Under the pieces are notes generated by a model. That model was not told the origin of the DNA and did no database searches. It worked only from the letters and a program-made list of their open reading frames with translations. A stretch of 63,188 nt of DNA, filler included, from Stramenopiles sp. TOSAG23-2 (Eukaryota): the NCBI GenBank assembly GCA_900128395.1. It is 14 parts of 14 records of this genome, joined end to end, with 100 filler letters (N's around TTAATTAATTAA, not from the genome) between each part and the next. Parts side by side here need not be neighbours in the genome. Positions count along the whole stretch, not along the records: positions 40,492 to 45,440 come from LT650770.1; 13 more parts are not named here. The stretch is one strand, 5' to 3'. Positions 1,278 through 45,625 of the stretch are shown piece by piece. How positions within the stretch are numbered: position 1 is the first letter of the stretch; every line of letters starts with the position of its first letter. A program made the position numbers and the translations under genes.

Positions 1278-1590
1278 GTAGGTGGCATTTAAAATGAACA
1301 ATTTCCACCTCCGATATTTACCTTAAATTAGGCACGTTTTTGACCAAACCCGAAAATATGCTAAATAATTATAATTCATGTATTCATTGTATATTAATTG
1401 ATAGGTAAAAGTGAATGATGATGTACTGAAGATGTACTAAATAATTATATTTCATTTGTATTAATTATATTTGTTCATTTAGTAAAGTGAATGAGATGTA
1501 TACTAATTTCAGTCAATTTTGGTAAAGATGAGAATTGGATGAAATTTATCACTTCAGAGGTGGAAATTGTTCATTTTAAATGCTACCTGC
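1278..1590. mobile_element. MITE-like element with about 34-bp terminal inverted repeats
   Basis: GTAGGTGGCATTTAAAATGAACAATTTCCACCTC from 1278 is the reverse complement (2 mismatches) of GAGGTGGAAATTGTTCATTTTAAATGCTACCTGC ending at 1590. AT-rich non-coding interior; no clean TSD. Confidence 0.6.
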
Positions 1591-2059
1591 TATATATTTA
1601 TGATCTACATGTGATAAAAGTATGAGATGTATACTAATTTCAGTCAATTTTGGTAAAGATGAGAATTGGATGAAATTTATCACTTCAGAGGTGGAAATTG
1701 TTCATTTTAAATGCTACCTGCTATATATTTATGATCTACATGTGATAAAAGTACAAGTTTATTTATTTACATGATCTCGTAATTTAAAAGATCATAAGCT
1801 TATTATAAAAATGTACACATACATAATAGTATCAGTGCCATATACGATCTCTATTTCTACGTTGCCAAACGACGCCATCAACGATGGCGTCAAAATACTG
1901 CGTTAAAACCCTCAACCCAATGCGCTCCTGATTTGTTCGTACGTAAAAAATACGCTGGAGCCAGTTAGAGCGGCACGCACAACTGCAACACCCCTCATCT
2001 GAGAAAATTATACATCAATCAGCGTAACATTACTCAACGCCTGTAAGATTAACTTAATG

Positions 2060-4867
2060 TTAACATCCCCCCCCTCTTACATTCTTACCTAAAAGGCGCC
2101 TTCGTCTTGACGACAATTCCAGGCATTCCTTTTTGGATGTATGACCATTTATATTACCACCATTTATATTACCATAATGCATTTGATTGTTTCCGTTAAA
2201 CACTTTATATGTTGTAATTTGGCAATTCATATCCCATTGAAATAGGATTTTTACGCTCTTCTTAATAAACTCTTGAGCTACTTTATTCTTTGTAGTACTT
2301 AGTTTACTAATACATTTACAAAGTTGCAAATTCTTTTTGCAGTCAAATGAAAAACTCATGTCGCTTTTCTTCAAGTCAATCTTACTAAACATATTATCTT
2401 GTTTGCATTCTTCAATATTGGTATTGGACGGTATCAGTTTCCTCCTTGCTTGCTGCCACTCTTTATACGTTTTTTTTGGAGTAGCCAACTGATTTATTGC
2501 TGCAAGTAACCGTCTTCGCCTTGCATTTTTGTCAGTTCTCCCTTTCTTTTTTTTCTTCTTTCGGTTTTTAGATTTCTTCGCCTTTTTCTTACTTTGTTTC
2601 TTTCCTGTCACTTTTTTGCTTGTTCTCCCTTTCTTTTTTTTCTTCTTTCGGTTTTTAGATTTCTTCGCCTTTTTCTTACTTTGTTTCTTTCCTGTCACTT
2701 TTTTGCTTGTTCTCCCTTTCTTTTTTTTCTTCTTTCGGTTTTTAGATTTCTTCGCCTTTTTCTTACTTTGTTTCTTTCCTGTCACTTTTTTGCTTGTTCT
2801 CCCTTTCTTTTTTTTCTTCTTTCGGTTTTTAGATTTCTTCGCCTTTTTCTTACTTTGTTTCTTTCCTGTCACTTTTTTGCTTGTTCTCCCTTTCTTTTTT
2901 TTGTTGGTGTTACCTTTCTTCATTGATTGTTTCTTTCCTGTGTTTTTCTTCTTACTTCGTTTCTTTCCTGTCACTTTTTTGTTTGTTCTCTCTTTCTTTT
3001 TTTTGTTGGTGTTACCTTTCTTCATTGTTTGTATCTTTCCTGTGTTTTTCTTCTTACTTCGTTTCTTTCCTGTCACTTTTTTGCTTGTTCTCTCTTTCTT
3101 TTTTTTGTTGGTGTTACCTTTCTTCATTGATTGTTTCTTTCCTGTGTTTTTCTTCTTACTTCGTTTCTTTCCTGTCACTTTTTTGTTTGTTCTCTCTTTC
3201 TTTTTTTTGTTGGTGTTACCTTTCTTCATTGTTTGTATCTTTCCTGTGTTTTTCTTCCACTGATTTACAAATTGTGTACCTTCTAATAAATTAAAAACGT
3301 TTCCTGCGTTACTTTTGCCATTCTTATCGCTGCCCCAACAAACTACATTGTATTTATTCGTTACAGCACAGCTATGATAGTTACCAACATCTATTTCAAC
3401 ATATTGACCTTCTTTTGCTTTGCCATTATTCCCCGGAGGACGAATTTTATTATTTTTTTTTATCGTACCCCAACATTCTATTTTCCCGGTATCTGTAAGA
3501 CCACAAGTATAATCCATTCGTGTACTAACTTGTATAAATTTTCCTTCTGTTGGTTTTTTCCAAACCCCGTTTGCGGGAGGAAGTTGATTCTCGCTGTTAT
3601 CTCCCCAACATTCGATATATCCTGTGCAGGTTAGTCCACATACATGAGTTTTGCCTGCACTTACTGCTGTAAAAACACCCCCGTTTTTTGCAACCCCTTC
3701 ATTTGGCGGGGTAATATACTTAGCATCACTATTGGGTTTTGACCAACTGAACCAACATTCAATTATTCCCTTATCTGTCAAACCACATGTGAAGTCTCTA
3801 CCAACACTTACTTGAGTAAATTCACTTTTATTGTCTTTTGCCTTACGTGGGTTTGCAGTTGTTCCATCTCTCTGAAAACACTGAATTTCCCTAGCGGTCT
3901 TTGTAAGACCGCAGGCATATTCACTACCAGCGCTTACTTGATAATATGCATTTTTTTTCGATTTTTTATACAGTTTCCTTTCTGCCATTTTGTCACCAGC
4001 CGTGGACTTTTCGTCCCAATACCAACATCTGATATTTCCAAACGTAGTTAACCCACAAATGCTGTTCCATCCGGTGCTTACTTTATTAAACTTGCTGTCG
4101 CTATCGATATATTTGCTATCGATATATTTCCCACCTGTTTTTTTCCCAAAACAAACAATTTTTTCGGTAGGTGTCACAGCACATGTATCTTGAGCCCCAG
4201 AACTAAGTGTAAACATTTTCTCTCCCGCTTTCACTGGTTGGCACGCATTTTTGGCCTTTGCACGCGTTTTTGTTTTTTTAGGCTTTTTTTTACGCGGTGC
4301 TTCTTCTGTAGGTTTTTCGCTTTCTCCTTCTTTAGGTGCTTCCTCACCACCCTCCTCTTTTGGAGCCTCTTCTGTTGGTGCTTCCTCCTTTGGTGCTTCT
4401 TCTGTAGGTGCTTCCTCTTTAGGTGCTTCTTCACGGGATTTTGTTTTTTTAACTGTAACTTGTTTTTTAATTACCATCACGGGCTTTTTTTTACGCTTCC
4501 CCATTCGTAATGCCTTTACACGGGATTTTGTTTCTGTGTTATCTTCCTCGTTTGCTACATTTAAATCATGTTCTTCATCATCTCTTTGTTCTAGAATATC
4601 ATCTTCCGCGTTTGCTACATTTAAATCATGTTCTTCATCAGGTCTCTGTTCTAGATTCTTCTTACTTTTTTCCCGAAGCGTTCCCATGACACGCTTTTTG
4701 TTCGAAACGGTCCTCGACATTTGCGTCGTTTTTTTGTTGCCAATTTCACTATACTGTCGATTAGACATCATTTTTTCATGAGTGCCTAATGCTGCGGCAT
4801 GGTTATTGGCAATTTTTCCAATTAAAGCAAATAGCACAAGCAAAAACACGCAAACAAATCGTGTCAT
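2060..4867 (-). CDS. Secreted protein: signal peptide, acidic/EEAP repeats, RCC1/BLIP-II-like repeats, very Lys-rich repeats, two RRRRLL motifs
   Basis: 935-aa ORF with hydrophobic N-terminus and about seven repeats like QVSxGxxxxCGLTxxGxIECW. Lys-rich units of 34 aa x4 and 29 aa x4. Confidence 0.85.
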   Translation of the reverse strand: MTRFVCVFLLVLFALIGKIANNHAAALGTHEKMMSNRQYSEIGNKKTTQMSRTVSNKKRVMGTLREKSKKNLEQRPDEEHDLNVANAEDDILEQRDDEEHDLNVANEEDNTETKSRVKALRMGKRKKKPVMVIKKQVTVKKTKSREEAPKEEAPTEEAPKEEAPTEEAPKEEGGEEAPKEGESEKPTEEAPRKKKPKKTKTRAKAKNACQPVKAGEKMFTLSSGAQDTCAVTPTEKIVCFGKKTGGKYIDSKYIDSDSKFNKVSTGWNSICGLTTFGNIRCWYWDEKSTAGDKMAERKLYKKSKKNAYYQVSAGSEYACGLTKTAREIQCFQRDGTTANPRKAKDNKSEFTQVSVGRDFTCGLTDKGIIECWFSWSKPNSDAKYITPPNEGVAKNGGVFTAVSAGKTHVCGLTCTGYIECWGDNSENQLPPANGVWKKPTEGKFIQVSTRMDYTCGLTDTGKIECWGTIKKNNKIRPPGNNGKAKEGQYVEIDVGNYHSCAVTNKYNVVCWGSDKNGKSNAGNVFNLLEGTQFVNQWKKNTGKIQTMKKGNTNKKKKERTNKKVTGKKRSKKKNTGKKQSMKKGNTNKKKKERTSKKVTGKKRSKKKNTGKIQTMKKGNTNKKKKERTNKKVTGKKRSKKKNTGKKQSMKKGNTNKKKKGRTSKKVTGKKQSKKKAKKSKNRKKKKKKGRTSKKVTGKKQSKKKAKKSKNRKKKKKKGRTSKKVTGKKQSKKKAKKSKNRKKKKKKGRTSKKVTGKKQSKKKAKKSKNRKKKKKKGRTDKNARRRRLLAAINQLATPKKTYKEWQQARRKLIPSNTNIEECKQDNMFSKIDLKKSDMSFSFDCKKNLQLCKCISKLSTTKNKVAQEFIKKSVKILFQWDMNCQITTYKVFNGNNQMHYGNINGGNINGHTSKKECLELSSRRRRLLGKNVRGGGC
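2530..3260 (-). repeat. Coding tandem repeats, 87 bp x4 and 102 bp x4
   Basis: GTTCTCCC recurs at 2535, 2622, 2709, 2796 and 2883. TTGTTGGTGTTACC recurs every 102 bp from 2901. Confidence 0.95.
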
Positions 4868-4972
4868 GTTTCTTGTAAGAAAGTTAAAAATTATTATCTA
4901 TGCAACGTCGACGTACGTATTATCCAATGACAACCCAGTAGCAATGTAAGGAGCCGTCACTGGTAACTGCAC

Positions 4973-5072
4973 NNNNNNNNNNNNNNNNNNNNNNNNNNNN
5001 NNNNNNNNNNNNNNNNTTAATTAATTAANNNNNNNNNNNNNNNNNNNNNNNNNNNNNNNNNNNNNNNNNNNN
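4973..5072. other. Artificial contig linker (first of 13)
   Basis: N44-TTAATTAATTAA-N44 gives stops in all six frames. Others start at 10042, 15110, 20171, 25230, 30285, 35339, 40392, 45441, 50488, 55531, 60574 and 61882. Confidence 0.99.
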
Positions 5073-5096
5073 TATATAATACAAAATATAGCAAAG

Positions 5097-8000
5097 ATGG
5101 GAAAACTTTTTAGTTCAATTGGTTTACCAGGACAAAATATGAATATGCAAAGAAGAGAAAATATTGAATTTGATGATAATCCCTACCACGTTAGTGTAAA
5201 AATAAGGAGTGAAGATAGGGAAAATACTTTTCGCCTAACATTTACAAATGTGCAAGAAAAATCATTTCCCAAAGCTTCGCTTTCAAAATTAACTTATTTT
5301 GACGATCGTCCAAAACCAGATGGTAAAATTGAATTGCTTCCTGAATCGAAAATGAATGGAGCGTTTACATTTTTAAGTGACGGGGGAAATGGAAGAGGAT
5401 GGGTTAGTGGATCGAAAGATGTGGAAGGAGGCTTTGGGCATGGTCGATTCATTGAAGATGCACTTGGAAATAAAGATATTCGTTATATGTCCGCGGAACA
5501 GTTGGAAATCTACCAGGAAACGTTAGACGAGAACAAAATATCCCCCGATGATGCACTTGGCGATGAGGTATGTCTTGCAATTGATATGGGAAGTCCATTG
5601 AGAGAAATTCCCAGATATAAATTGAATCCTCTGTTAATACGCCGACGCAAAACAGATACATGTTGCCTTTTTATTTTGTTTCTGTTTTGGGTTTTTATTT
5701 TTTTTGTTTCAAAACATGCCATTGAATATGGGGATACCAATCGTTTACTATTTGGTGTTGATTCCCTTGGCAATACGTGTGGTTCTACTAACAGTGAAGG
5801 ATCAAAACTTGGAGTAGATTTGACAAATGAAAAATATTTATGGTGGCCCGATAGTTCCAATCAACCTAGATATATGATGTGCATAAGTAAATGTCCTGGC
5901 GTTGGAGATTTAAATTCTACTACATATACAGATTATATGGTAAAAGTAATGGATCAAAATGCACCGATAAAAACATACATTGTGCAAACAGCAACAACAT
6001 CAGTACTAAATCGTTGCATCCCAGAGGATGGTGGAGAAAATCTAAAAATTGGTAATGATTTGATAGTTTTAGCAGATCTTTTAAATGGATGGAAAACCAT
6101 CCTTGTATCAGGTAGCATTGCGTTGATTTGTGGATTTACCTGGTTAATGCTCATCACACGGTTTCCAAGAATAGTTGTAACATGTACTGTATTTGGAACA
6201 TTTATGACTGCTTTAGGTATCGCAGCTGGTCTAGTATTGATTGCCTATCCTTCCACTAGGTCAATTGCAAAAAATGTTGTTGATCCAACAGCATCCATAT
6301 TTACCATGGTATCTTTAATTGCTTTGTTTTTATTTACATCAACTTTTTTTTATCGATTTTGTCGTAAAAGAAAGCTTGCGAAATATGCATGGCCAATTAT
6401 GGATGAATTATCACATGCAATTAAACGAATTGGATCAGGGTTTATAATGTATCCTATCATTAATTTTTTTTTATTTGCTGGATTAGGAATTGGCGGGTGT
6501 CTACTAATGGTGCAAATATTAAGTTTAGGAAAAATCAAACAAATTTGTGAATGCCCAAAAAATTCATTGACAAATTGTAAATGCACGCAAGTATTTGAAT
6601 TTGATCCTGATGCTAGATTCTATGCAGTCATTACATTGATTGGTATGTTATGGCATCAGAACATTTTATTGGAATTAACAAGATGTACCATTTCTGGTAC
6701 ATTGTCGGTGTGGTTTTTTACAGATGATGACGAGGAGAGTGGAAAGAAACTATTGCCAATGTTTCCAACATACAAGATGTTTTCAAGAATATTCTGGAAT
6801 CATTTAGGCACAATTGCATATATTGCTTTTATTCGACCATTCCATATGATTCATCAGCCATTGCTTGATTGTATGGACTATAACCGTCGAAAACCAACCA
6901 CTAGTGAATTTCGACGCAAATGCCTCGGCCTTACTCTTTTGAAATGTTGTTGTTGGGATACAATGCAATATGCAAATTGTGATGCAGCACTTGTGCAAGT
7001 TGCACTTCACGGATATCATTTTCGTGAAGCAACTACTGTTGGGGCAAAGCTTTGGATGAGAAATAAACGACGTGTTTATGGAATGCAGTCGTTCATACTG
7101 CTATCTGTACAATTTGGAACGTGTGCCATTTTTCTTTTTTCATGTGCTATTGCTGTGTACACATCAAATAATGCACTAGGTACATCTAGCCCAATCGCCG
7201 TTCTGTTAGTAACAGCTATAGTTGTTTTCGCAATAGCGCGTGCATTTACTATAATCTTTAGTATGGTAACAAAATCGTTTATGTTGAACTTTCTTGAAGA
7301 TGCGGAAAGGAACGGAATGGATGAAGAAGGTTATACTGAAGATGCTCCGTATGTTGCAGGTGGGAAAATAGTACACCCAGGAAAACCAGCAAGTCATAAA
7401 CAGCTTTTTATGCCAAAGAAATTAAAAAAATTATTGGATTCGTTTACCTATTTATTAGATGATCGTCCACCTACTCCAGGCGAAGCGATTCATGAACTTA
7501 TCAAGCATAAGCTAAAAGATTTGACATTAGTGCATTCCAACAGCAATTGTCGATTGATGAGACGATCACATGTTGCGCAAACTACTGATGCTGCCTTTTA
7601 CGATTCTAATAAACCTTGGAGGGTTTCTGCAACAATTCCATATAGACATGAGCAACAACCTGCTGGATCGGTAAAATTATTTGTCCATGAACCGACTAAA
7701 GCAACGAGTTGGTGTGGACTTTTTAAAACGGGGGGATTAAAGGAAGTCAAGCGGGTTCCACAAGATAAAAGGCTAGTAGAAGGTCCATATAATTATGAAT
7801 ATGATTGTGAAAACATCAAAGGAGCTCATCCACATTTATCACCTGAACAACAAGAAGAGCAAAAAATTTCTCGTTTAAGCTTAATGGTGGAAACAATAAC
7901 AGTTAGATGTTCCATTCATCTAATGACAAAAAAAGATGCAGGATTTTTAATGGATGACCCTACTCGGATTAGACCAGTAACGCAGCTTAGTGCTAAGGAA

Positions 8001-8732: not shown

Positions 8733-9416
8733 GCAAACACACACGAATTTTCATAATAATACAAAATTCCATTTTTATCTAAAAGGCGCTTCCATATCTG
8801 CATATAATGCTTGAAAATCTCTATTTAACAAATCTAAATTTTTACAAGATAATATACACATATAATTGATATGTATCGACATAGTGTTGTATATATATAT
8901 TTTCTTTCATCGAAACTTATTTATATGATTACAATACATCTACATATGGAAGGTATTATTATAATTAGGAAGGTGTAGGAGTTACTTTAACTTCTTACTT
9001 CTTACATTCATTTTTTGATGATGAAAAAAAAGGCAAAGGAAAATGGAAAAAGATAATATTAATAGCATGATTTTTACAAGTAAATAGAATGCTGGGTTTA
9101 TCCAAATGTCAATCATTACAATATTAATAAAATGAAATACTATAATTAAAAGTAATATATATAAACTTCCATTATATAAATGACATAAAAACTGTGACAC
9201 CTACTGCGTTGCGGATCCAAAATCCAAAGAAAAACTCATGGGAATACCATTATATTACTATCAAATTGTAGCAATTGATACTTCAAAGGGATATTAGAAT
9301 ACCAACAACTACAATAAATAAATAATATATATTTAAGTAGAAAACAAACATCAACCAAGTCGATTTCGACACACCACACTCTTCACTATTTTCACACAAA
9401 ATCCACCCAACCATTC

Positions 9417-10040
9417 TCACTTCTTCTCGTCCATTTTCACTTGCTTCTCATGTTTGTCTTTCCAACTACTTCTACGTCTACTTTTATGCCTTATTTTATT
9501 CGTTGTCACACGGGCAAGTTTATCTTTCTCAACGAATGTATCTGCTAATTTACTACTTTCACTTTCTTTTGGTACAATCGTACCTTTTGAGGATGAAGAA
9601 GCCTCTCCTTCCACTCCATTTTTACTATCACTATCATCATTAATCTTCCTACTATTTTCCATTTTGGACAACATCATTGGATTTGTTGAAAATGAATCAA
9701 ATGAACTAATTCTAAAACTATCATTTGACATAGCAGAATCACGTTTACCTCTTTCATCATCATCCGCAGCAGTTGTGTTTGACATTTCCAACACTGCATC
9801 CATTGTTAAACTACGACGATGTGTACTATCATTATATCGATATGCAACATCTAATACAGTTTCTAACTCAATCACTTCATTGATATCATCAACCTTAGCT
9901 AATGCTTCACGTACGACTTCTATATCGGATCCTGTTATTACTGCGTGGCGTCCAACATTTAAATCACCATAACCTGGTCGTACATCTCTACCATTTTCAT
10001 CATAATGATTTGCTTTTCCACCTTTTGAACGTAAAAGTGC
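9417..10040 (-). CDS. 3' part of an ankyrin-family paralogue, 5'-partial
   Basis: The frame is open to the contig edge and begins ALLRSKGGKANHYDENGRDVRPGYGDLN, matching the tail of the 39945 ankyrin gene (LIRSKGGKANHHDANGRNVGEGNGDLN). Confidence 0.75.
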   Translation of the reverse strand, partial: ALLRSKGGKANHYDENGRDVRPGYGDLNVGRHAVITGSDIEVVREALAKVDDINEVIELETVLDVAYRYNDSTHRRSLTMDAVLEMSNTTAADDDERGKRDSAMSNDSFRISSFDSFSTNPMMLSKMENSRKINDDSDSKNGVEGEASSSSKGTIVPKESESSKLADTFVEKDKLARVTTNKIRHKSRRRSSWKDKHEKQVKMDEKK

Positions 10041-20170: not shown

Positions 20171-20929
20171 NNNNNNNNNNNNNNNNNNNNNNNNNNNNNN
20201 NNNNNNNNNNNNNNTTAATTAATTAANNNNNNNNNNNNNNNNNNNNNNNNNNNNNNNNNNNNNNNNNNNNAAGATGGGAAGTGGTCGTGCTGTCTTGTAT
20301 AAAAATTGAAAAAGGACGTGTGTGTATATATGATGTCATATAATGGGTTATGAGATTTAAATAGTGTATGTGTGTGTGTGTGTGTGTGTAAATAGTGGAA
20401 CAAGGAAAAAAAATGTACAATATCTTTTATTTATCTCACACCCCTATGTGTATGTACATCTCATTAAAAGTATTTGTGTGTTTTAATTTAAATTACATTC
20501 AACAATCTTAAAAATTGATAAAAATGTAATTTTTTACTTTTATTCCCCTTCTCTTATTTTTTTAACTTTTTTTACAACAAACTTCACCAACCCACCACAC
20601 ATCAATCTTTTTTTTCTTCTTTTTCGTCATTACAATATTTAGTACTACAAATGACCTATTAGGTGTAATTTTTTACTTTTATTCCCCTTCTCTTATTTTT
20701 TTAACTTTTTTTACAACAAACTTCACCAACCCACCACACATCAATCTTTTTTTTCTTCTTTTTCGTCATTACAATATTTTTACTATTTTATATACACTCT
20801 TCTATTTTGAACACATTAATAAACTAAATAAATTCAGAAGACTTGATTAGCTAAAGAAAAGACTTTCGTATTAATTTTCGTGTGTATCTATACTGAACAC
20901 AAATGTGTCTTATATATACACACACAAAA

Positions 20930-22972: not shown

Positions 22973-24341
22973 TTATTTTCTATACTCTGGATCAATTGGA
23001 AACGTAGATTCTGATAATATTCCACTTTCTCCACATACATGTTCACTTTTTGGATAAGGTGGACCACATGCTGAACCATCTTTTGTTTTCAAATCTTGTA
23101 GATTCTGATAATATTCCACTTTCTCCACATACATGTTCACTTTTTGGATAAGGTGGACCACATGCTGAACCATCTTTTGTTTTCAAATCTTCACCACAAG
23201 GTTCTTTACCTTCTCCATACCTAGCCAAGCGAATATAACCATTTTCACCCCAATCTGCACCCCATGAATTGCGTACTATCCAATACATGTTACTGGCATT
23301 TTTTTCATTTGCACCATATCCAACTAATTGAACGGCATGATTGATTTCCCAACATTGTTTTGCTTTCTTCTTCTTCTTCGCATGTATATTACAACTAAAA
23401 ATGCCAGATTCATAAAATTCGAAATCATCACTAACAGCAACAGCAACAGACAATGGTCCTTGTAATACTGCTTCGATTAAAGGTTTGTATTCATTTGCTG
23501 GCAATGCAATATGTCCTTTCACAGTAGCTGCAGGTATAATTTTTTTTGGTCTGCACGTTTTATCTTTACCATTTTTACTTTTATATGGATAATCTTTCTC
23601 CGAAGTCAATCCAACAGTAGCAAGATAATCATACCCCAATGCTTCAGTTGCACCATCGCAATTACCAGTTCCACCACAATGTTCTGGATTTGGTGTACAA
23701 GCTGTTATTTGTTGAGCCGATAATTCGACTAACTTTTTTTCATCACTTGCAAGAGCAGCTCGACTTTCAATAGTTTCAGCAACACTAAATGCCCAACACG
23801 AACCGCAGTCACCTTGATCTTTAACAGGTGTCAATACGTTTTTCTTTGTTCTCCAATCAACGGAGTCTGGGGCATTACCAATATTTGTATGTTTACTAGA
23901 ACTACTAAGGCTAAAGTTTGTGTATGCATTAACAAAATTATTTCTAAAACCATTATAATGTCTTTTTTTTCCTCGGCGTAACCTTCTTTCATAAAATTCT
24001 TCTTGACTCCAGTCGGTAAAGATATTAACACCCATATGATACGATACATTTGGAATTTCATTATGTTCCATAATATATTTTAAATTTTTGTTAAAATTCT
24101 TCTCACGTTGTACAAACTCTTCTGTATCAATATATGCTTTTTCATATTCAACTACATATTTATCAAACGTATAATTATTCGATAGTTCATACCACCGTGT
24201 ATGACGACGGTGATGTTGATTATTATTAATTATTGTTGCTGCATTTACATCATTCCCGACAACAATATATAATAAAGCTATTGTTATTATTACTGTAAAA
24301 GATGACATTGATTGTGTTGTTGTCATATTATATCTATTCAT
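22973..24341 (-). CDS. Papain-family (C1A) cathepsin L-like cysteine protease
   Basis: Signal peptide, ERFNIN/GNFD-like prodomain, QGDCGSCWAFS, INHAV and WIVRNSWG. A 94-bp tandem duplication (23004-23191) frameshifts the tail; removing it gives ...GILSESTFPIDPEYRK* ending at 22973. Confidence 0.93.
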
Positions 24342-24719: not shown

Positions 24720-25746
24720 ATTTTATATATTATATCCTGTATATAACATCTACACTCTTGGATCTATCTATATATAGGTCGTCTATACTCTTTATATATC
24801 TTAATCTATCCGATACAGGGACGTTCTCCCTGCTATATATATATTTATTATTCAAAATGTATACTATTATGTCAAAATTCTCATCTTCAAAATTCTGATT
24901 CGAGTTCGACGATTCGACGAGTTCGAACTCAAGAAATCCTCGTATTAGTATGAGTATTACTATACGATTTTATTATCCTTTTCATAGAGTATATTAACAC
25001 GGGAATAGCACCTTTTTTTACTCTCTTTTTCTCCATATTTTTTTGAGCAACACACACAACAAAAACATAAATAAAAATAAGAAAATCCGATACAGGGACG
25101 TTCTCCCTGCTATATATATATTTATTATTCAAAATGTATACTATTATGTCAAAATTCTCATCTTCAAAATTCTGATTCGAGTTCGACGATTCGACGAGTT
25201 CGAACTCAAGAAATCCTCGTATTAGTATGNNNNNNNNNNNNNNNNNNNNNNNNNNNNNNNNNNNNNNNNNNNNTTAATTAATTAANNNNNNNNNNNNNNN
25301 NNNNNNNNNNNNNNNNNNNNNNNNNNNNNTAACTCAACAAATAATAATAAAAAAAAAAAAATGTCTATCATCATATCTACATGTAATACCAGTAGTGGTG
25401 GTAGAAATTTATAGACTAGAATATAATATTAATAGTAGTCTATAGATAAAAATATATAAAGCACTATATAAATATATATATATACTCTAACATATGATAT
25501 ATATATTATACACAGCAGAATGGAACAAAAATAAATACCAATTGCTTTACTTATAATTCAATTTTGCATTGTGTGCCATTATTTAATATGTATAATATAT
25601 ATTTATTTCAAATCATTTTTTATTTGAATAATATATATATATACTCTAACATATGATATATATATTATACACAGCAGAATGGAACAAAAATAAATACCAA
25701 TTGCTTTACTTATAATTCAATTTTGCATTGTGTGCCATTATTTAAT

Positions 25747-28700
25747 ATGTATAATATATATTTATTTCAAATCATTTTTTATTTGTTACTTGTATTAACT
25801 ATTACCACTTTTGCTAAAACTGATTTGAATCAAGACCAGGTATTGAAAATTTTATATGAAGCTATTGATTTTCAACAAAATAATAATTTTGAAAAAGCTA
25901 TTGAAAAGTACAATTACATATTACAACGATACCCTAATCATCCTGATGCTTTGCATTTATCTGGTATAGCGCATCATTACATCGGTGGAAGAAAAATAAA
26001 CCATTTAGCAGGCAGTGTTTCTGCAATTTCTCCGAACCTTCTACAAACATATAAAAAAAATGAAAAAATAGCGGAACAATTAGTTCGACAAGCAATTCTT
26101 GTAAAACCAAGTGATTCAAATTTTTACAACACGCTAGGTGAAATAATACGATTAAGTAGTATCAATATGCAACATGTAAACTATAAAGACAGTCAATTGG
26201 GTCGTTTGGAAGAATCCTTAAGTGTGTATCGGAATGGTATTGACGTTCTTATGCCAGGATTTTTGAAAAAGCTTACAAGTAATCCAGTACGAGAATTACA
26301 AATTTACGATATGTTCAATTTGAATAATAATAATAACGATAATATGCCAGAAGGAACTGCAAATACCCCTGATTTGTCAGATTTAATGAAAAATTATGGT
26401 TTAGCTTTAATGCAGACGAAAGATATCGATTATACCGTGATTTATTATGAAAATTTAGTGAAATTGAACCCAAAAAATGTAGATTACCAATTTAATTTAG
26501 CAATGAATCTACGTAGAAAAAAAAACGATGTAGAATATGCCAGGGCATATAATGTATTTAACTATATTGTTGAAAAACATCCAAATATAATATCAGCTAA
26601 AATGCAATTAGCTATTACATGTCAAATGCAAGGTAGAATTGGAGATGCTATAAATATTTATAATGAAATTATTAAAGTCAAAGGAAACGATCATGGAAAT
26701 GATGGTACTGTAAAAATGGATGAATCCTTTGTGCAATCACTAGATGATGTAACACGTCAAACAATCATGGTAAATTTAGGTGCTGCGCATCAAGAAAGTG
26801 GACATTTTCACAAAGCAATTTATTTATATCAACGCAATTTAAAAGAATTACCAAATGATGCAAGGGCTTGGAACAATCTTGGAAGTAGTTTATGGCAGAT
26901 TGGTGATGCTCAAAAAAGTGTAGATGCATATATGAAAGCAATAGATATTGATCCGACGGGAGGTGAGGCATATGTAAATTTAGGTGTTGCGTATTATGAA
27001 TATGGCAACATCGAAAAATGTACAAATGCTTACGAGACGGCTTATAATATAACGAAAAATGACGGTTTATTAATGAGATTGGCTACCATGACATTGCCAA
27101 TCATGACTTCAATGGAACAAATAAAGAAAGATCGCCATCAATTGAAAACAGCAATAATGAAATTATATAATAGGATAATAGACGGAACAAATCCAGTATA
27201 TTTGGACGAACCTGTGAAAGATATTGAAAGAGTTCATTTTTATTATTTATACCATGGGAAAAATGAAATATTTAATCAAATTATGATGTGCAATTTGTAT
27301 TTCAATAGTGCCAAACATGTATTGCCATTTGTTTCAAATTATTTATCATACAAGCCGTACTCACATACGTTGGAGGCATTGAATTTGCCACATTCTGATG
27401 GTAAAATTGTAGTTGGATTTGTCAGCAAATTTTTAGTTATAAATCATGCGCATGGACAATTATTAGAAGGTATTGTACAACATCTAGACCGAAATATTTT
27501 TTATATTGTTGCATTGGTAATTCCAAATCCACAAAATGTATTGTTGCCATCTATTGCCAATAGCGCAGATTATGTAATAAGGCTACCATTTGCATTGAAA
27601 GAAGTGAGAGGTATTATTAGCGATTTAAAATTGGATATTTTAGTGTTTGCAGACATGCTTAGTGAACCATTGACATATTTTATGGGATTAGGAAGTCGAA
27701 TGGCCCCAATTCAATGTCTCTTCTGGGGAAATCCAGTGACGAGCGGTACGCCAGATAACATTGATTATTTTATAACAGGCGAGTGGATGGAAGAGGAAGG
27801 TATGGGAGGTCGACATGATACGTATGATCCTAGGACAAAAAACAATTGGATGGAACGGGAAGGTGAGGATCATAGAATTAAAAAAAAATCCTCGAAAATT
27901 GCTTCTCAATATACAGAACAATCGGTTAGATTACGTGGACAAGGTATTTGGTATGATAAAATTCCTATACCTTTAAATATTAATGATCCATATGGTTTTG
28001 AAACTGTAAATAGTGAAGATATGATTTTACCGTGGCAAAATGAACCAGGCACTTTGACATATATTTGTGCACAATCATTATTCAAATTGCACCCACATTA
28101 TGATACGATAATTCAAAAAATACTAGAAGCGACGCCAAATTCCTATTTGGTATTGCTACAAGGTCGCAGACAAACTTGGACCGAAATGATAAAAACTCGA
28201 ATGAAAAGTACAATGACCAACGATGTTTTCAAACGTATTTTTTTTACCCGTAGAGTTGGAAGTAGCAATGATTATTTAAGAGTGTTAAATAAAGCAGACA
28301 TAATATTACACCCATTTCCATTTGGTGGTAGCAAAACAAGTGCGGATGGGATATTGTTGAACAAACCTACAGTTGTATTAGTCACGGATAAATTGCGCTG
28401 TCGCATGGCATTTAGCTATTTTGTCACTATGGGTATTTATGATACAGTTGTATATACTGAAGATGAGTACGTCCGGAAAGCAGTGGAGCTAGGTTTAAAT
28501 GAAGATTTACGAAATGAAATAGGAAACAAGATGAAATTGCAAAGTCATAAAATTTGGGAAAGGATGGAAGTAATAGATGCATGGAGTCGTTTTTTTCAAA
28601 GAGCATATTTAGGTAGTCGTAGTGGAAATTTTCCAGCATATAATAGAAAATGGAATGGTGAAGTTAAATCAAGAAAAGAATTTGAATCTAATGTGCCAGC

Positions 28701-38843: not shown

Positions 38844-39590
38844 ATGTCATCCATAACAGAACAAGAAGATAAGGTGGACGACGACGGTGATGATGACATT
38901 AAAAACATATACGATGTATGTGGTATACCAGGTTTGTTTAAACATATTTTAATATTTTTAAATGTTAAATCTATATTAAAAATGAGGGAGTCTTGTTTAG
39001 TGAAAAATTTAAGTCATACAAGTTTTAATGAGTGTGTAAGTGCAGCGGTAAGTGGGCCAAAACATTTGTTTGAGTTGTATCGAAGATATGGATTGGAGTT
39101 TCAAGGGAAATCGGCATTGGTATGTGCATGTGAAAAAGGACGTATGAATGATGTGGAATTATTTATAAAATTGCATCGTTTTCATAAATATATTGAGATG
39201 AAAGGTGTGAAAGAAGGTAATATGACATTGAACGAGATGGTGAATCAAGTCGGTAAAAATAGTGGTGGTTGGGGATGGACACCTTTAGTGGAAGCTGCAA
39301 GATACGAACATTTCGACGTAGTTAAATATTTAATTGAACAAGGTGAAGCTGATCTTGATATTGCAGATAGTGGTGGAGGGAATGCATTACATTATGCAGC
39401 ATGGAGGAACAAAAAGAAGACTGAGTTGATTGAATTGTTATTAACTAATATGTCTCTTAATAGCATTAATAAGAAGGACAGTGTGGGATGGACTCCCCTG
39501 GACTGTGCATATTTTAATAATAATCCAATTCAACAAGCGATCATTGATCTTACACGTTCGAAAGGTGGAAAACGTAGTAGTGAATTATAA
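38844..39590 (+). CDS. Ankyrin-repeat protein with a possible N-terminal F-box-like motif
   Basis: WTPLVEAARYEHFDVVKYLIEQGEAD, NALHYAA and GWTPLDCA. N-terminal IPGLFKHILIFLNVKSILKMRESC. Confidence 0.88.
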   Translation: MSSITEQEDKVDDDGDDDIKNIYDVCGIPGLFKHILIFLNVKSILKMRESCLVKNLSHTSFNECVSAAVSGPKHLFELYRRYGLEFQGKSALVCACEKGRMNDVELFIKLHRFHKYIEMKGVKEGNMTLNEMVNQVGKNSGGWGWTPLVEAARYEHFDVVKYLIEQGEADLDIADSGGGNALHYAAWRNKKKTELIELLLTNMSLNSINKKDSVGWTPLDCAYFNNNPIQQAIIDLTRSKGGKRSSEL

Positions 39591-39944: not shown

Positions 39945-40391
39945 TTAATCATTTAAATCACCATTACCTTCTCCTACATTTCTACCATTTGCATCATGAT
40001 GATTTGCTTTTCCACCTTTTGAACGTATAAGATCAATGATCTCTTGTTTAATTGGACTATCATTATCAAAATATGCCACGTCCAGGGGAGTGTATTCCCC
40101 CCTGGTCTTCTTATTAATGCTATTAAGAGACATATTAGTTAGCAACAATTGAATCAACTCAGTAGTCGTTTCGTTATTCTGCACTGCTACATGCAATGCA
40201 TTCTCTCCATTACTATCTACAATATTAGGATCAGCTTCACCTTGTTCAATCAAATATTGAACTATTTGGACATGTTCGCCCCATGCAGCTACCATTAAAG
40301 GTGTACCATCATCACCATCACTATCTTTACCGAATTGATTCACGTGTTCTCTCAATGTCATATTATTAATACCCTTCATGCATGTAATAAA
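39945..40391 (-). CDS. Ankyrin-repeat protein, probably 5'-partial
   Basis: GTPLMVAAWGEHVQIVQYLIEQGEADPNI, NALHVAV and YTPLDVA. Convergent with its paralogue. Confidence 0.88.
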   Translation of the reverse strand, partial: FITCMKGINNMTLREHVNQFGKDSDGDDGTPLMVAAWGEHVQIVQYLIEQGEADPNIVDSNGENALHVAVQNNETTTELIQLLLTNMSLNSINKKTRGEYTPLDVAYFDNDSPIKQEIIDLIRSKGGKANHHDANGRNVGEGNGDLND

Positions 40392-40825
40392 NNNNNNNNN
40401 NNNNNNNNNNNNNNNNNNNNNNNNNNNNNNNNNNNTTAATTAATTAANNNNNNNNNNNNNNNNNNNNNNNNNNNNNNNNNNNNNNNNNNNNAAGAAGATT
40501 TTTTTAAAGATTGTAAACTTTGAATTTTATACGCGTGTATTATAAAGAAAAGAAGGCAATAATATTTGATTAAAATATTAATATTAACTGAATATAATAT
40601 TTATAAATGTATGGAGTTGACTATTAGAGAGGATCCTCTCTAGAGTTGACACATGGCGACTAAAAAGGAGAGGCGAGAGTACGAAAAAGAGAGGGTATAC
40701 ACAACACACTATTTAATACGGCTTCGTACGTACGAGTATTATATTTATTGCTACACAGATTTACGTCGTAAAATATATATTTTTATTTTAATAGCCATTT
40801 AATAATCTGCCGGGCATGCTGGCCC

Positions 40826-42820
40826 AAATCGTTTAATATAAGATATAGGATTATCTTCCAATAATATTATGTATAATTTATCTTACTTATACTCTCTCTT
40901 CTTCTTAGTGATCTATTCCAAGATCTCTCTCTCTGTATATCTCTTTCTATACAGTATATAATACACCATAAGTGTTATTATTGAATTATTGTATCGTATT
41001 CTATAGTATTCGCCTAGTATTACGATAACTCGATAATCAGACTTATAATAAATAATCGATTGGTACTATACAAATAACATGTATTGTGTTCATTTCCATG
41101 GACAAATAATGTTGGTGCTTTACGTATGTATATTGTAAATGTGTTCATTTGTACTTGTACTGTTCATTTTGTCTTAATTATAAACTTATCCAGTTATGTA
41201 TTACTACTTGTGACAGTCTTAAAGTCGCGTTACATTTGGTGCGTCTAAAAGGCTGTCTTACATTACGTATTAGCGCCTATACTATTCTTTAGATATTAAG
41301 GTATATTGGTCGACAGTTTTCATCAATACTTTTCTCCTCCTCAATCTTATAGCATATATATGTGTGTGCGTTTGTGCGGTCTTTTCGTTGGCACATATGC
41401 ATATATACACATTGACTATGTATTAGATTGATATGTATTCATGAAACTGTATTCGACTCGTGATATTGCATCATAATGATTGGTTGTTATTGTAGCGGCT
41501 CATTTATTCTAAAATTAATACTTAATTGTAAACGATTAATTAACGCGATCATAATGATAAACAATGAATTGATTAGTCTATGAATTTGTTTTGTATCATG
41601 CATATTATCTAACAAGAATATTTTAGTATTACTTGGGCAAATATAACATGATTTGATGAATGGGAACGATTCGAAGTAATGCAATCTTCATTTCAGATTG
41701 ATCAAATTTTCTGTCCTATATATTTGTAGACTAACCAGTACAAATATATATTCTTATTTCCGACAGATACGTTTACCCATATAAATGTGCAAAATGGCTT
41801 AGAACATGCGTTCTGCATCAACAGGACTGTTGCCTGTGAAAAAATATTTTGCCATCTCCATGTGTTTCTGAGGTGGTAATGCTTTGGTTAATATGTCAGC
41901 TAAGTTTTTATTAGTATCGCATCTAACTACTATTACTGTTTTATCTTGAACCATTTCTTGGACTAAGAAATGCTTAACAGCAATATGTTTAGTTCTCGAT
42001 GAACATCGTTTACTAAATGCAATTGTTAATGAGTAGATGTCAAAAACAAAAATGTGAAAATTTGAAAATTTTTATACTTGCTAGGGGGATAAAAAGTATT
42101 GGGCCCGTAACCAAATCGTTTAATATAAGATATAGGATTATCTTCCAATAATATTATGTATAATTTATCTTACTTATACTCTCTCTTCTTCTTAGTGATC
42201 TATTCCAAGATCTCTCTCCCAAATCGTTTAATATAAGATATAGGATTATCTTCCAATAATATTATGTATAATTTATCTTACTTATACTCTCTCTTCTTCT
42301 TAGTGATCTATTCCAAGATCTCTCTCTCTGTATATCTCTTTCTATACAGTATATAATACACCATAAGTGTTATTATTGAATTATTGTATCGTATTCTATA
42401 GTATTCGCCTAGTATTACGATAACTCGATAATCAGACTTATAATAAATAATCGATTGGTACTATACAAATAACATGTATTGTGTTCATTTCCATGGACAA
42501 ATAATGTTGGTGCTTTACGTATGTATATTGTAAATGTGTTCATTTGTACTTGTACTGTTCATTTTGTCTTAATTATAAACTTATCCAGTTATGTATTACT
42601 ACTTGTGACAGTCTTAAAGTCGCGTTACATTTGGTGCGTCTAAAAGGCTGTCTTACATTACGTATTAGCGCCTATACTATTCTTTAGATATTAAGGTATA
42701 TTGGTCGACAGTTTTCATCAATACTTTTCTCCTCCTCAATCTTATAGCATATATATGTGTGTGCGATACTATTCTTTAGATATTAAGGTATATTGGTCGA
42801 CAGTTTTCATCAATACTTTT
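40826..42820 (-). mobile_element. Non-autonomous, internally deleted Ty1/Copia LTR retrotransposon
   Basis: 508-bp direct repeats at 40826-41333 and 42221-42728 (junctions at 42113 and 42820). Minus-strand PBS GGTTACGGGCCCA at 42100-42112, PPT TTGAGGAGGAG at 41334-41344, RNase H remnant, and GCCC on both flanks. Confidence 0.9.
41799..42029 (-). pseudogene. Copia RNase H C-terminal remnant (not in the ORF track)
   Basis: Translates LTIAFSKRCSSRTKHIAVKHFLVQEMVQDKTVIVVRCDTNKNLADILTKALPPQKHMEMAKYFF..., containing the Copia RTKHI and ADILTK motifs. Confidence 0.92.
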
Positions 42821-42977
42821 GCCCGGCTGGCACATGCAACATGCATGCCCATATTAAAAATATAATTAATAAAATAATAGAATAAACTAAAAATATAGAC
42901 ATAAATAAGACAGAACCAAGGTAATTATACACCACCACCCTCCACCCTCCGCTTGGTAAAGAATTAGACAACTTATT

Positions 42978-43940
42978 ATGAACCCCCTTAACTACCACCC
43001 AACAGAACTTATAGAACAATTGGAAGAAAAATATATGAGTCATGGTGAGTATAATAATGCAGGCGGACATGATACAATTGAGGCAAATTATAGGCTTCAA
43101 GAACAATATGAACTGCATTGTTTAATGGAATGGAAAAGACGGGAAACAATACACTCATTACAAGCTCAAATGATACAAAACTACAGAGCGCAAAACCAGG
43201 CTCTTCAGGCAGAAGTTGAAGCTCTACGAGCCAATCAAACACCTGATGATGGCGATGTCAACGAAGATGAAGTTGTGATCAATGTTCCAGCTTACGATGA
43301 TGGCGATGTCAACGAAGATGAAGTTGTGATCAATATTCCAGCTTACATAAGCTGTAACATTGAACTCTATCACAATATATGTATACACCCTCATGAGGAT
43401 GTAAGTGATGCTTTAAAATGCGTGGGGAGTAATTTCAAGGCATTACGTGGAATGAATGCAACGTGGAAACAAAAATATCCTGCTTCTCGTAAGAGAACAA
43501 GAACAGGAACAAAGCCACACCGTGGCTTTATAAGCCTAAAAAAAAATGGCAAGGTTGTTTCAACAGTATTATTTAATATTGTTGAAGATGGTATTGTTGA
43601 AGGTGGTAAAGTATACGTCGAAATTTTTAGAGCATGCACAGATAAAGAACATAGAAAAAAAGGTTATATGGGTATTTTATTTTCTATATTACGCTCAATG
43701 GAAATGAAAGATTCTGAATTTCACTTTTTTGCTTGTATTGACAACAAGAGTATCGAATTCTACAAGAACGAAAGAATTTGTTTTGAGAAAAGTACTCGTA
43801 GTACGAAGCCACTTACCGCACTGAACTTTTCAGGTTATGAAGATCACCGGTTGAATCTATATGCAGCAATAGGAGAATGTTGCGAGGCGCAACTTCGTAA
43901 GATTTATGAATATTATATTAAGAATAGGCTAGTGGTATGA
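42978..43940 (+). CDS. GNAT-family acetyltransferase-like protein
   Basis: VVSTVLF...VEIFRACTDKEHRKKGYMGILF (acetyl-CoA motif A-like) and SIEFY. Internal 17-aa duplication DDGDVNEDEVVIN(V/I)PAY. Confidence 0.65.
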   Translation: MNPLNYHPTELIEQLEEKYMSHGEYNNAGGHDTIEANYRLQEQYELHCLMEWKRRETIHSLQAQMIQNYRAQNQALQAEVEALRANQTPDDGDVNEDEVVINVPAYDDGDVNEDEVVINIPAYISCNIELYHNICIHPHEDVSDALKCVGSNFKALRGMNATWKQKYPASRKRTRTGTKPHRGFISLKKNGKVVSTVLFNIVEDGIVEGGKVYVEIFRACTDKEHRKKGYMGILFSILRSMEMKDSEFHFFACIDNKSIEFYKNERICFEKSTRSTKPLTALNFSGYEDHRLNLYAAIGECCEAQLRKIYEYYIKNRLVV

Positions 43941-44112: not shown

Positions 44113-45161
44113 CTACACCAAATTGATCCCTTCATATTCATCGTAACCATATGCTAAATTTGCATTTTGCAATGCTTGCGTCGCAGCACCTTTTAATAAA
44201 TTATCAATCGTTGCTGTTACAACAATATGATTCGTACCATCTATTCATCGTAACCATATGCTAAATTTGCATTTTGCAATGCTTGCGTCGCAGCACCTTT
44301 TAATAAATTATCAATCGTTGCTGTTACAACAATATGATTCGTACCATCACCATTGCCAGTAGTAAAATTACCAACACATGCATAATGTTGTCCAGCATTA
44401 TCTACAACTTGAGGATCATCTAAAATTTTTACCAATGGTTCATTTTCATAATATTTTTCATACATATCGCGTAGTTCATCTGTACCAATTTCTTTATCTA
44501 CAACAGCATTTACTGTCAAATGTATACCTCTAAAATACGATGCAACATGTGGCATAAAATTTACATTATGGCCTAAATGTCTACTAACTTCTTTTTCATG
44601 TATATGATCTGTTAATTTATATGCCATTAAATTATCTTTTAATAAATCAACATCGTTTTTTGGTGATGGTGTTGTACCAGCACCTGAATACCCACTAACA
44701 CCAAATACATATGGAGAAGAATCACTTCTCACTTTAACATTGCTATTTGTATCTAGTAATGGCAATAAAGCTACTTGTGCACCTGTTGCATAGCAACCCG
44801 GATTTGATATTAAACTTGCTTTTTTAATTAAATCGCGATTAACTTCTGGTATACCATATGTCCAATCATCATCGAACCTATAATCAGCACTTAAATCAAT
44901 CATTTTTACACCCGCATCATCTGATAATACATTAACATATGGTTCTGCTAAACCATTTGGTAATGCAAGAAACCATAAATCAACATTTGCATTTTTACAA
45001 TCTTCAGGTGACATATTTGAAAACGTTATTTGTTTTAAATCTTCAAGGCCGTGGCTAGAAATCGTAAACCCTTGTTCTTCTGCTTGTTTTTGAACTATTG
45101 TACCTACGTTTTCACCTATTAAAGAGCGACTACTTGCATGAGTCAATGAAAAACCAGGATG
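44113..45161 (-). CDS. argC: N-acetyl-gamma-glutamyl-phosphate reductase, 5'-truncated in this assembly
   Basis: [35 protein letters not shown] and [13 protein letters not shown] 107-bp duplication (44135-44348) creates the apparent stop at 44241; the natural end is [12 protein letters not shown] at 44113. The N-terminal nucleotide-binding motif is missing. Confidence 0.93.
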
Positions 45162-45625
45162 ACACACAAATTAATTTTTTGCTTTTTTCATGTCAATATC
45201 GTAATATTTTTAACCGGTCCTCCTTTTCTCCCCCTTGTACCTACGTTTTCACCTATTAAAGAGCGACTACTTGCATGAGTCAATGAAAAACCAGGATGAC
45301 ACACAAATTAATTTTTTGCTTTTTTCATGTCAATATCGTAATATTTTTAACCGGTCCTCCTTTTCTCCCCCCTCACTCTCTCTCTCTCTCAAACATCGTC
45401 TTCCATTTTTTTCTTGGTATTATTATTATTATTATTATTANNNNNNNNNNNNNNNNNNNNNNNNNNNNNNNNNNNNNNNNNNNNTTAATTAATTAANNNN
45501 NNNNNNNNNNNNNNNNNNNNNNNNNNNNNNNNNNNNNNNNATGAACGGGAGTAAAAGAAATTTATATAATATATGAGTAAGAGAACATTTTATATACGCA
45601 CACACAAAACACCTCTTTTCCTTTT

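Follow-up and report, generated by a model that had tools for sequence, protein, structure and literature searches.

In this study, we analysed a 63,188-base stretch of DNA (the window) from the draft genome assembly of Stramenopiles sp. TOSAG23-2 and identified on its minus strand, at positions 40826 to 42820, a long terminal repeat (LTR) retrotransposon with AA…TT ends. It is very probably a non-autonomous member of Ty1/Copia that inserted recently, the extra pieces it contains being most likely errors of the draft assembly. The element was delimited by sequence reading, repeat search, self-BLAST and a print-out of its junctions. TG…CA termini are usual, though not universal, in Ty1/Copia (Pseudoviridae); they were found neither here nor in an independent insertion of the same family located in the metagenome contig L001. 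Since the flanks of the L001 insertion are unrelated to those of the element in the window and its boundaries are identical, the AA…TT ends are a property of the family and not a peculiarity of one copy or of a mis-set boundary.

The 508-bp LTR is present in two copies that are 100% identical, the 3′ LTR at 40826 to 41333 and the full 5′ LTR at 42221 to 42728, the latter seen in the repeat search, the self-BLAST and the junction print-out alike. On the element strand, the LTR starts with AAAAGTATTGAT both after the polypurine tract (PPT; …ATTGAGGAGGAG|) and after the genomic flank (…TGCCAGCCGGGC|), and ends with …ATTAAACGATTT both before the primer-binding site (PBS; |GGTTACGGGCCCA) and before the other flank (|GGGCCAGCATGC). 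The PPT, GAGGAGGAG (41334 to 41342), with a purine run that extends into the LTR as AAAAG, and the PBS, GGTTACGGGCCCA (42100 to 42112), which abuts the unique 5′ (U5) end directly, each touch the LTR without a spacer. AAAAGT…CGATTT was read at all LTR junctions, comprising three starts and three ends in this element and four out of four in L001. All four terminal bases differ from TGCA, and the ends remain an inverted repeat. The right-flank junction, at 42820, sits in a 55-bp partial copy of the LTR and not in a full copy. An earlier note made from the sequence alone had described the 508-bp LTR, its four junctions, the PBS and the PPT on the minus strand, with GCCC on both sides; all of these statements were borne out, and its remark that no reading gives TG…CA holds for both copies, with L001 fixing the same boundaries.

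The independent insertion was obtained by scanning metagenome contigs with an exact pattern, 27 nt lying just inside the U5 end, which returned the single contig L001 (10,751 bp) with two matches. Its LTRs, at 7418 to 7925 and 9126 to 9633, are each 508 bp long and show no mutual differences, and they differ from the LTR in the window at 7 of 508 positions. Both the 13-nt motif at the PBS position and the PPT are the same in the two copies, and the internal region of the L001 element, 1200 bp, has a different deletion. Different genes lie in the flanks of L001, where the junctions read …ACAAGGTAATAG|AAAAGT and CGATTT|AATAGCACTAAA (with the flank letters that bear the target-site duplication [TSD], …GGTAATAG|AAAAGT and CGATTT|AATAGCAC). 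The U5 boundary is ambiguous by two G when the element in the window is taken alone but is fixed by L001, because the sequence that the PBS, this element's flank and that of L001 have in common ends precisely with CGATTT. Exact LTR-end patterns had no match in the viral-contig or genome-contig collections, a protein-based scan of viral contigs gave 85 pattern matches of which none was confirmed, and blastn and tblastn (the latter with three Copia polyproteins) found no further copy within the 63-kb window.

Additional junctions were sought in public sequencing runs, 20 of which hold part of the contig (40492 to 45440) in which the element is located. Two small runs of 'organism A' contained 95% of the sampled words and many marine or seawater metagenomes contained 36–52%. 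Logan contigs (k = 31 graph) were compared for the runs X1, X3, X4 and X5, a contig being counted as crossing a junction under a bridging rule of 31 letters; the results below refer to the pieces listed for these runs. X1 is probably the source sample of the assembly and hence not independent of it. One X1 contig (40492 to 40853) runs through the left flank and then 28 nt of LTR, another (42792 to 43274) through 29 nt of LTR and then the right flank. They stop 28–29 nt inside the LTR, under the bridging rule, as contigs of a k = 31 graph do at the edge of a repeat. A further X1 contig, departing right after 42821, supplies a third flank context at the start of the unique 3′ (U3) region. X4 and X5 contain a related LTR that still begins with AAAAGTA, preceded by another sequence, rich in purines. 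An X3 contig carries the 3′ untranslated region (UTR), PPT, LTR, PBS and leader in series with six differences, confirming from a third data set the LTR length and both internal junctions and having an identical PBS. Yet another X1 contig matches the LTR only from 42410 on (LTR position ~190) and has unrelated sequence before it; taken together with an LTR depth of ~3.5 times flank depth in X1, this means that organism A has at least one further, possibly truncated, LTR copy.

Two other ways of drawing the ends were considered. If the boundary lay one base to the left, the LTR would be G-AAAAGT…CGATT with GA…TT termini, the PBS would start with TGG and the primer would be the 3′ end of a tRNA. 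L001 would then have a perfect 5-bp TSD, TAATA, and G does precede AAAAGT at both L001 LTRs; however, C precedes it at the 5′ flank of the element in the window and at the second X1 flank, although the LTRs here are otherwise 100% identical, and the element in the window would be left without a 4- or 5-bp TSD. We therefore regard this parse as improbable, and even if true it yields no TG…CA. It is less credible still, to the point of being negligible, that a canonical TG…CA element had its four terminal bases mutated after insertion or that shared flanks led to mis-set boundaries, and no point in support of either was found. With no differences within either LTR pair, both copies are too recent to have gained four terminal changes; identical ends are present at two unrelated loci whose flanks share nothing, and the PBS and PPT abut exactly these ends. 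L001 already contradicts such an explanation.

The AA…TT element in the window is bounded by a perfect 4-bp TSD, GCCC on the plus strand and GGGC on the element strand (40822 to 40825 and 42821 to 42824), and the L001 element by a perfect 5-bp TSD, AATAG. Under any common parse the two TSDs differ by one base; the 5-bp TSD that is a feature of Copia was seen in one of the two copies. What was found in both independent insertions is the combination of non-TG/CA ends at exact boundaries, perfect TSDs and identical LTR pairs. The 4-bp TSD is copy-specific and a 4-bp stagger does not define the family; from these two copies, 5 bp is likely to be the family norm and 4 bp a variant outcome of one insertion. 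The earlier note had proposed that the integrase of the parent element is altered in stagger as well as in end recognition, and had held that an inconsistent TSD length would tell against its proposal; the lengths are indeed inconsistent, 5 bp in L001 and 4 bp here. An integrase altered in both respects would account for the exact GCCC duplication, the boundaries of which are fixed by three other junction contexts, but the altered stagger is unsupported because L001 shows a perfect 5-bp TSD, the Copia norm, at the same boundaries. In addition, a minority of 3–4-bp TSDs is known from 5-bp families of maize, where they were found in 108 and 483 of 43,226 elements, ~1% of the intact ones (10.1101/137141), and TSDs range from 4 to 6 bp in the TG..TT Copia families (PMC5659011). 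A double alteration is accordingly unlikely.

The layout of the element is more complex than a plain LTR–internal–LTR arrangement, the 1995 bp of the interval being made up of 508 + 779 + 106 + 2 + 508 + 37 + 55 bp. The sequence statements of the earlier note stand, but it missed two extra pieces in the right-hand LTR. The first, at 42113 to 42220 between the PBS and the 5′ LTR, exactly repeats the terminal 106 nt of the LTR, with 2 nt added, and forms one unit of a 108-bp tandem duplication (42111 to 42218 = 42219 to 42326). The second lies outside the 5′ LTR: the terminal 37 bp of the internal region, PPT included, recur there exactly (42729 to 42765), and the initial 55 nt of the LTR are repeated after them (42766 to 42820). 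This 55-nt copy was recognized by self-BLAST, is entered by the X1 contig 42792 to 43274 and bears the right-flank junction. L001 has neither extra. The X1 contigs 42219 to 42439 and 41304 to 42140 cross 42326 and 41370, respectively, unbroken and with no branch among the pieces listed, suggesting that the odd junctions are not in the reads, since a k = 31 graph would have to branch there. Seven exact (100%) tandem duplications of two copies (1.8 in one case), with periods of 94–159 bp, are scattered over unrelated contigs of the window (1491 to 1753, 20525 to 20779, 23004 to 23191, 25471 to 25785, 42111 to 42326, 44135 to 44348 and 45098 to 45371) and look like a systematic artefact of the assembly. 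One of the seven, of 107 bp and in the same contig as the element, breaks the frame of a neighbouring open reading frame (ORF) and is skipped by contigs of X3, X4 and X5. Moreover, the 5% of sampled words missing from X1 is about the estimated cost of the duplication junctions plus a poorly covered contig end. On these five grounds we read the 108-bp and 37 + 55-bp extras as assembly errors, with good though not full confidence.

It is conceivable that the 37 + 55-bp extra is real, in which case plus-strand strong-stop DNA, after 55 nt of U3, switched template back to just upstream of the PPT. The 5′ LTR is built from plus-strand strong-stop DNA, so such a switch alters only the 5′ LTR, and this is where the extra is found; in addition, an X4/X5 contig links ~52 nt from the start of the LTR with a CA-rich stretch that resembles the 37-bp piece. 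On the other side, the X1 contig 41304 to 42140 has no branch at 41370, the extra is absent from L001, two exact tandem duplications of the artefact class lie in the same contig, and 55 is a common assembler word size. We consider the template switch doubtful and an assembly error the better account of this piece.

The remainder of the element is best described as a coding element from which the middle has been removed. Its internal region comprises, on the element strand, a 5′ leader downstream of the PBS (42015 to 42099), a remnant of the pol C-terminus (41799 to 42014; the end of RNase H, RTKHI…LADILTKAL…stop, recognized by homology) and a 3′ untranslated part (41343 to 41798), the last two being together collinear with L001 8445 to 9125; the first 77 nt of the internal region are also common to L001. 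In X4 and X5, one contig matches 40843 to 42014 with 12 differences and then encodes the residues that precede the remnant in P0001, a related protein of 200 aa, whereas a second matches 42159 to 42014 with no difference and then runs elsewhere. As these contigs leave at 42014 on both sides, one of them into pol, the element is a single-deletion, non-autonomous derivative with its breakpoint at 42014/42015, and a longer element, probably full-length, is present in the X4 and X5 samples. The collinearity of leader and pol tail with both ends of a coding element favours a deletion derivative over a terminal-repeat retrotransposon in miniature or a large retrotransposon derivative. L001 is a different deletion of the same element. 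That the deleted internal region is real and roughly single-copy follows from one unbroken X1 contig from 41304 to 42140, the depth of which is 388 compared with ~290 for the flanks.

The sole coding remnant, a stop-to-stop frame at 41799 to 42071 on the minus strand containing RTKHIAVKH and LADILTKAL, places the element by homology in the Ty1/Copia (Pseudoviridae) type. The remnant shares 95% identity with P0001 and 74% with P0002, which aligned over 270 aa to the RVT_2-bearing P0003 (E 2e-43), and the L001 ORF aligned to the RVT_2-bearing P0005 (E 2e-18). A search of longer proteins with P0001 gave 350 matches at E ≤ 1e-10, and almost all of the matches listed bear RVT_2, often together with rve and gag-pre-integrase. 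The nearest full polyproteins, P0128 and P0129, carry rve and RVT_2 and have a C-terminal domain homologous to the remnant. What the element retains of pol is an RNase H tail homologous to the C-termini of rve + RVT_2 polyproteins, and the Copia assignment made in the earlier note is upheld by the alignment of this tail to RVT_2-bearing polyproteins. After the remnant come a stop, ~450 bp of UTR and the PPT, as would be expected if RNase H closes pol, which is the domain order of Copia. Pfam gave no match on the 90-aa remnant or its closest relatives; this is to be expected because the Copia RNase H region is not known to have a Pfam model. The search of longer proteins returned nothing above 57% identity that could be the autonomous parent and did not recover the family's own integrase, the RNase H identity to the best full-length relatives being only 51–57%.

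These results suggest how the AA…TT insertion may have arisen. One internal deletion would have removed gag, protease, integrase, reverse transcriptase and most of RNase H, leaving the 5′ LTR, the PBS, ~98 nt of leader, the last ~70 pol codons, the 3′ UTR, the PPT and the 3′ LTR. Copying and insertion would then have been carried out in trans by proteins of a full-length relative, longer copies of the element existing in other samples. Because the PBS and PPT abut the LTR without a spacer, the blunt ends of the linear cDNA would be the integrated ends, exactly AAAAGT…CGATTT, with no need for 3′ trimming. The integrase would join TT-3′ ends, instead of CA-3′ ends, to a staggered cut that was 5 bp in L001 and 4 bp in the window. 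Given that two independent insertions have identical ends, it is a reasonable inference that the integrase of the parent accepts TT-3′ at both ends. The integrase of Ty1 inserts foreign DNA only when it has CA ends, and AC ends lower integration in vitro more than 100-fold (PMC2939329); a Ty1-like enzyme is therefore not expected to use AA…TT ends. A general tolerance of Copia integrases for ends other than CA was considered and dropped, as changing CA abolishes insertion mediated by the Ty1 integrase (PMC2939329).

Several points weigh against the reading given above. No more than two complete insertions and a single additional flank were observed, TSD length rests on these two copies, which disagree (5 and 4 bp), and within L001 alone the boundary one base to the left fits equally well, being excluded only by the C at the 5′ flank of the element in the window. 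The X1 flank contigs are not independent support and enter the LTR by just 28–29 nt. No contig with an empty site (40825 joined to 42821) was among the pieces listed for the four runs, and since the flanks are barely covered in X3, X4 and X5 this is uninformative. Contigs crossing the duplication junctions could be among 27 further pieces and 16 loose ends beyond those listed, and the X4/X5 contig that links the start of the LTR to sequence resembling the 37-bp piece means that the 37 + 55-bp extra may be real. Finally, as the closest relatives recovered are 51–57% identical in RNase H and none brings the integrase of the family, the change in end recognition stays an inference.

The PBS appears complementary to the anticodon arm of initiator tRNA-Met of eukaryotes, apart from one mismatch, which falls on the middle base of the anticodon; neither the window nor L001 was found to contain a tRNA gene. 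The elements copia and Ty5 have TG…CA ends, unlike the element described here. As in these hemivirus-type elements, the PBS of the present element abuts U5 directly and does not start with TGG. Priming by an internal piece of initiator tRNA-Met has been described for the hemivirus-type Pseudoviridae, including copia and Ty5 (PMC5371799; PMC8515867).

Non-TGCA ends in Copia elements are well documented in plants. Seven such end types were reported in 42 of 50 plant genomes (10.1101/137141), and in lotus nine types account for a quarter of Copia (PMC9804982). The closest parallel is with the TG..TT and AA..CA Copia elements of Rosaceae, which have 4–6-bp TSDs and many copies with identical LTRs and for which the authors inferred divergence of the integrase (PMC5659011). 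Like them, our element is of Copia type, has TT-3′ (as in TG..TT) and AA-5′ (as in AA..CA) ends, perfect TSDs and identical LTRs, and belongs with short non-coding derivatives (PMC5659011). However, the Rosaceae elements retain one canonical end, whereas here both are changed, both joined 3′ ends are TT and the termini are still palindromic; the LTR is 508 bp compared with ~170–185 bp in the tabulated TG..TT families (PMC5659011); and the host is an AT-rich marine microbial eukaryote and not a plant. AA…TT combines both Rosaceae changes. The element also resembles plant non-TGCA Copia elements such as Tos17, which are short, inserted near genes and transposition-competent with identical LTRs (10.1101/137141; PMC9804982). 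The plant types TGCT, TGGA, TACA, TGTA, TGGT, TACT, TATA, TGTT and TCCA all begin with T, which is said to be the only invariable base in non-TGCA plant ends, and AA…TT is not among them (10.1101/137141; PMC9804982). These papers, in their supplementary tables in particular, may list more types, and we make no claim that AA…TT is unpublished.

Both insertions lie in short intergenic spacers, ~160–280 bp from ORFs. The L001 contig is gene-dense and apparently intron-poor, its element lying ~280 bp from the preceding ORF and ~245 bp from the following one, and it contains at 4029 to 5600 on the minus strand an open frame of 523 aa with no obvious identity. In the window, the element has two ORFs as neighbours. 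One is GNAT acetyltransferase-like and includes a tandem repeat of 51 bp in its coding sequence (42960 to 43940, plus strand); the other resembles N-acetyl-gamma-glutamyl-phosphate reductase (ArgC-like; 44241 to 45170, minus strand) and contains the frame-breaking 107-bp duplication. The best relatives of the ArgC-like ORF are metagenome proteins at 76–77% identity and a glomeromycete protein at 55%; some of its matches bear a fused acetylglutamate-kinase-type domain, as in fungal Arg5,6, which may point to a gene of fungal type. In X3, X4 and X5 there is hardly any coverage of the GNAT ORF, and the reductase ORF is near-identical. In the metagenome run X3, one contig (215 nt, depth 4) links 40792 through GAAA to 45161 and leaves out the element together with both genes; it was set aside as a possible consequence of repeats close to the duplicated end of the contig.

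The window itself is a pseudomolecule, with parts of ~4.95 kb that slowly fall in size, so that the 5-kb blocks standing side by side are not genomic neighbours. The linkers between them consist of 44 N, TTAATTAATTAA and 44 N (e.g., 40392 to 40491 and 45441 to 45540), and GC content is ~30–36% throughout. In the contig preceding that of the element, a 307-nt inverted repeat (39218 to 39524 and 40059 to 40365) is 79% complementary and could represent two diverged gene copies in opposite orientation.

In summary, AA…TT joins the non-TGCA ends already known in Copia as a type altered at both termini, and it comes from a host that is not a plant. It overturns nothing, as shifted or relaxed end motifs and 4–6-bp TSDs in Copia have already been published. 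The draft assembly carries systematic exact tandem duplications that are able to mimic biology. The finding is also a practical warning for LTR annotation, in which TG…CA filters are routinely applied to protist genomes and metagenomes, and the element offers a natural substrate pair, TT-3′ at both ends, for comparison with CA-dependent enzymes such as the Ty1 integrase. On balance, we lean towards the view that a Copia lineage of marine microbial eukaryotes has replaced CA-3′, the nearly universal recognition dinucleotide of the integrase, with TT-3′ at both ends, its cDNA ends remaining blunt and free of spacers and its stagger ~5 bp. If this is true, the integrase of the lineage would represent a natural specificity switch at both ends, and LTR finders anchored on TG…CA would overlook the lineage altogether, in protist genomes as in metagenomes.

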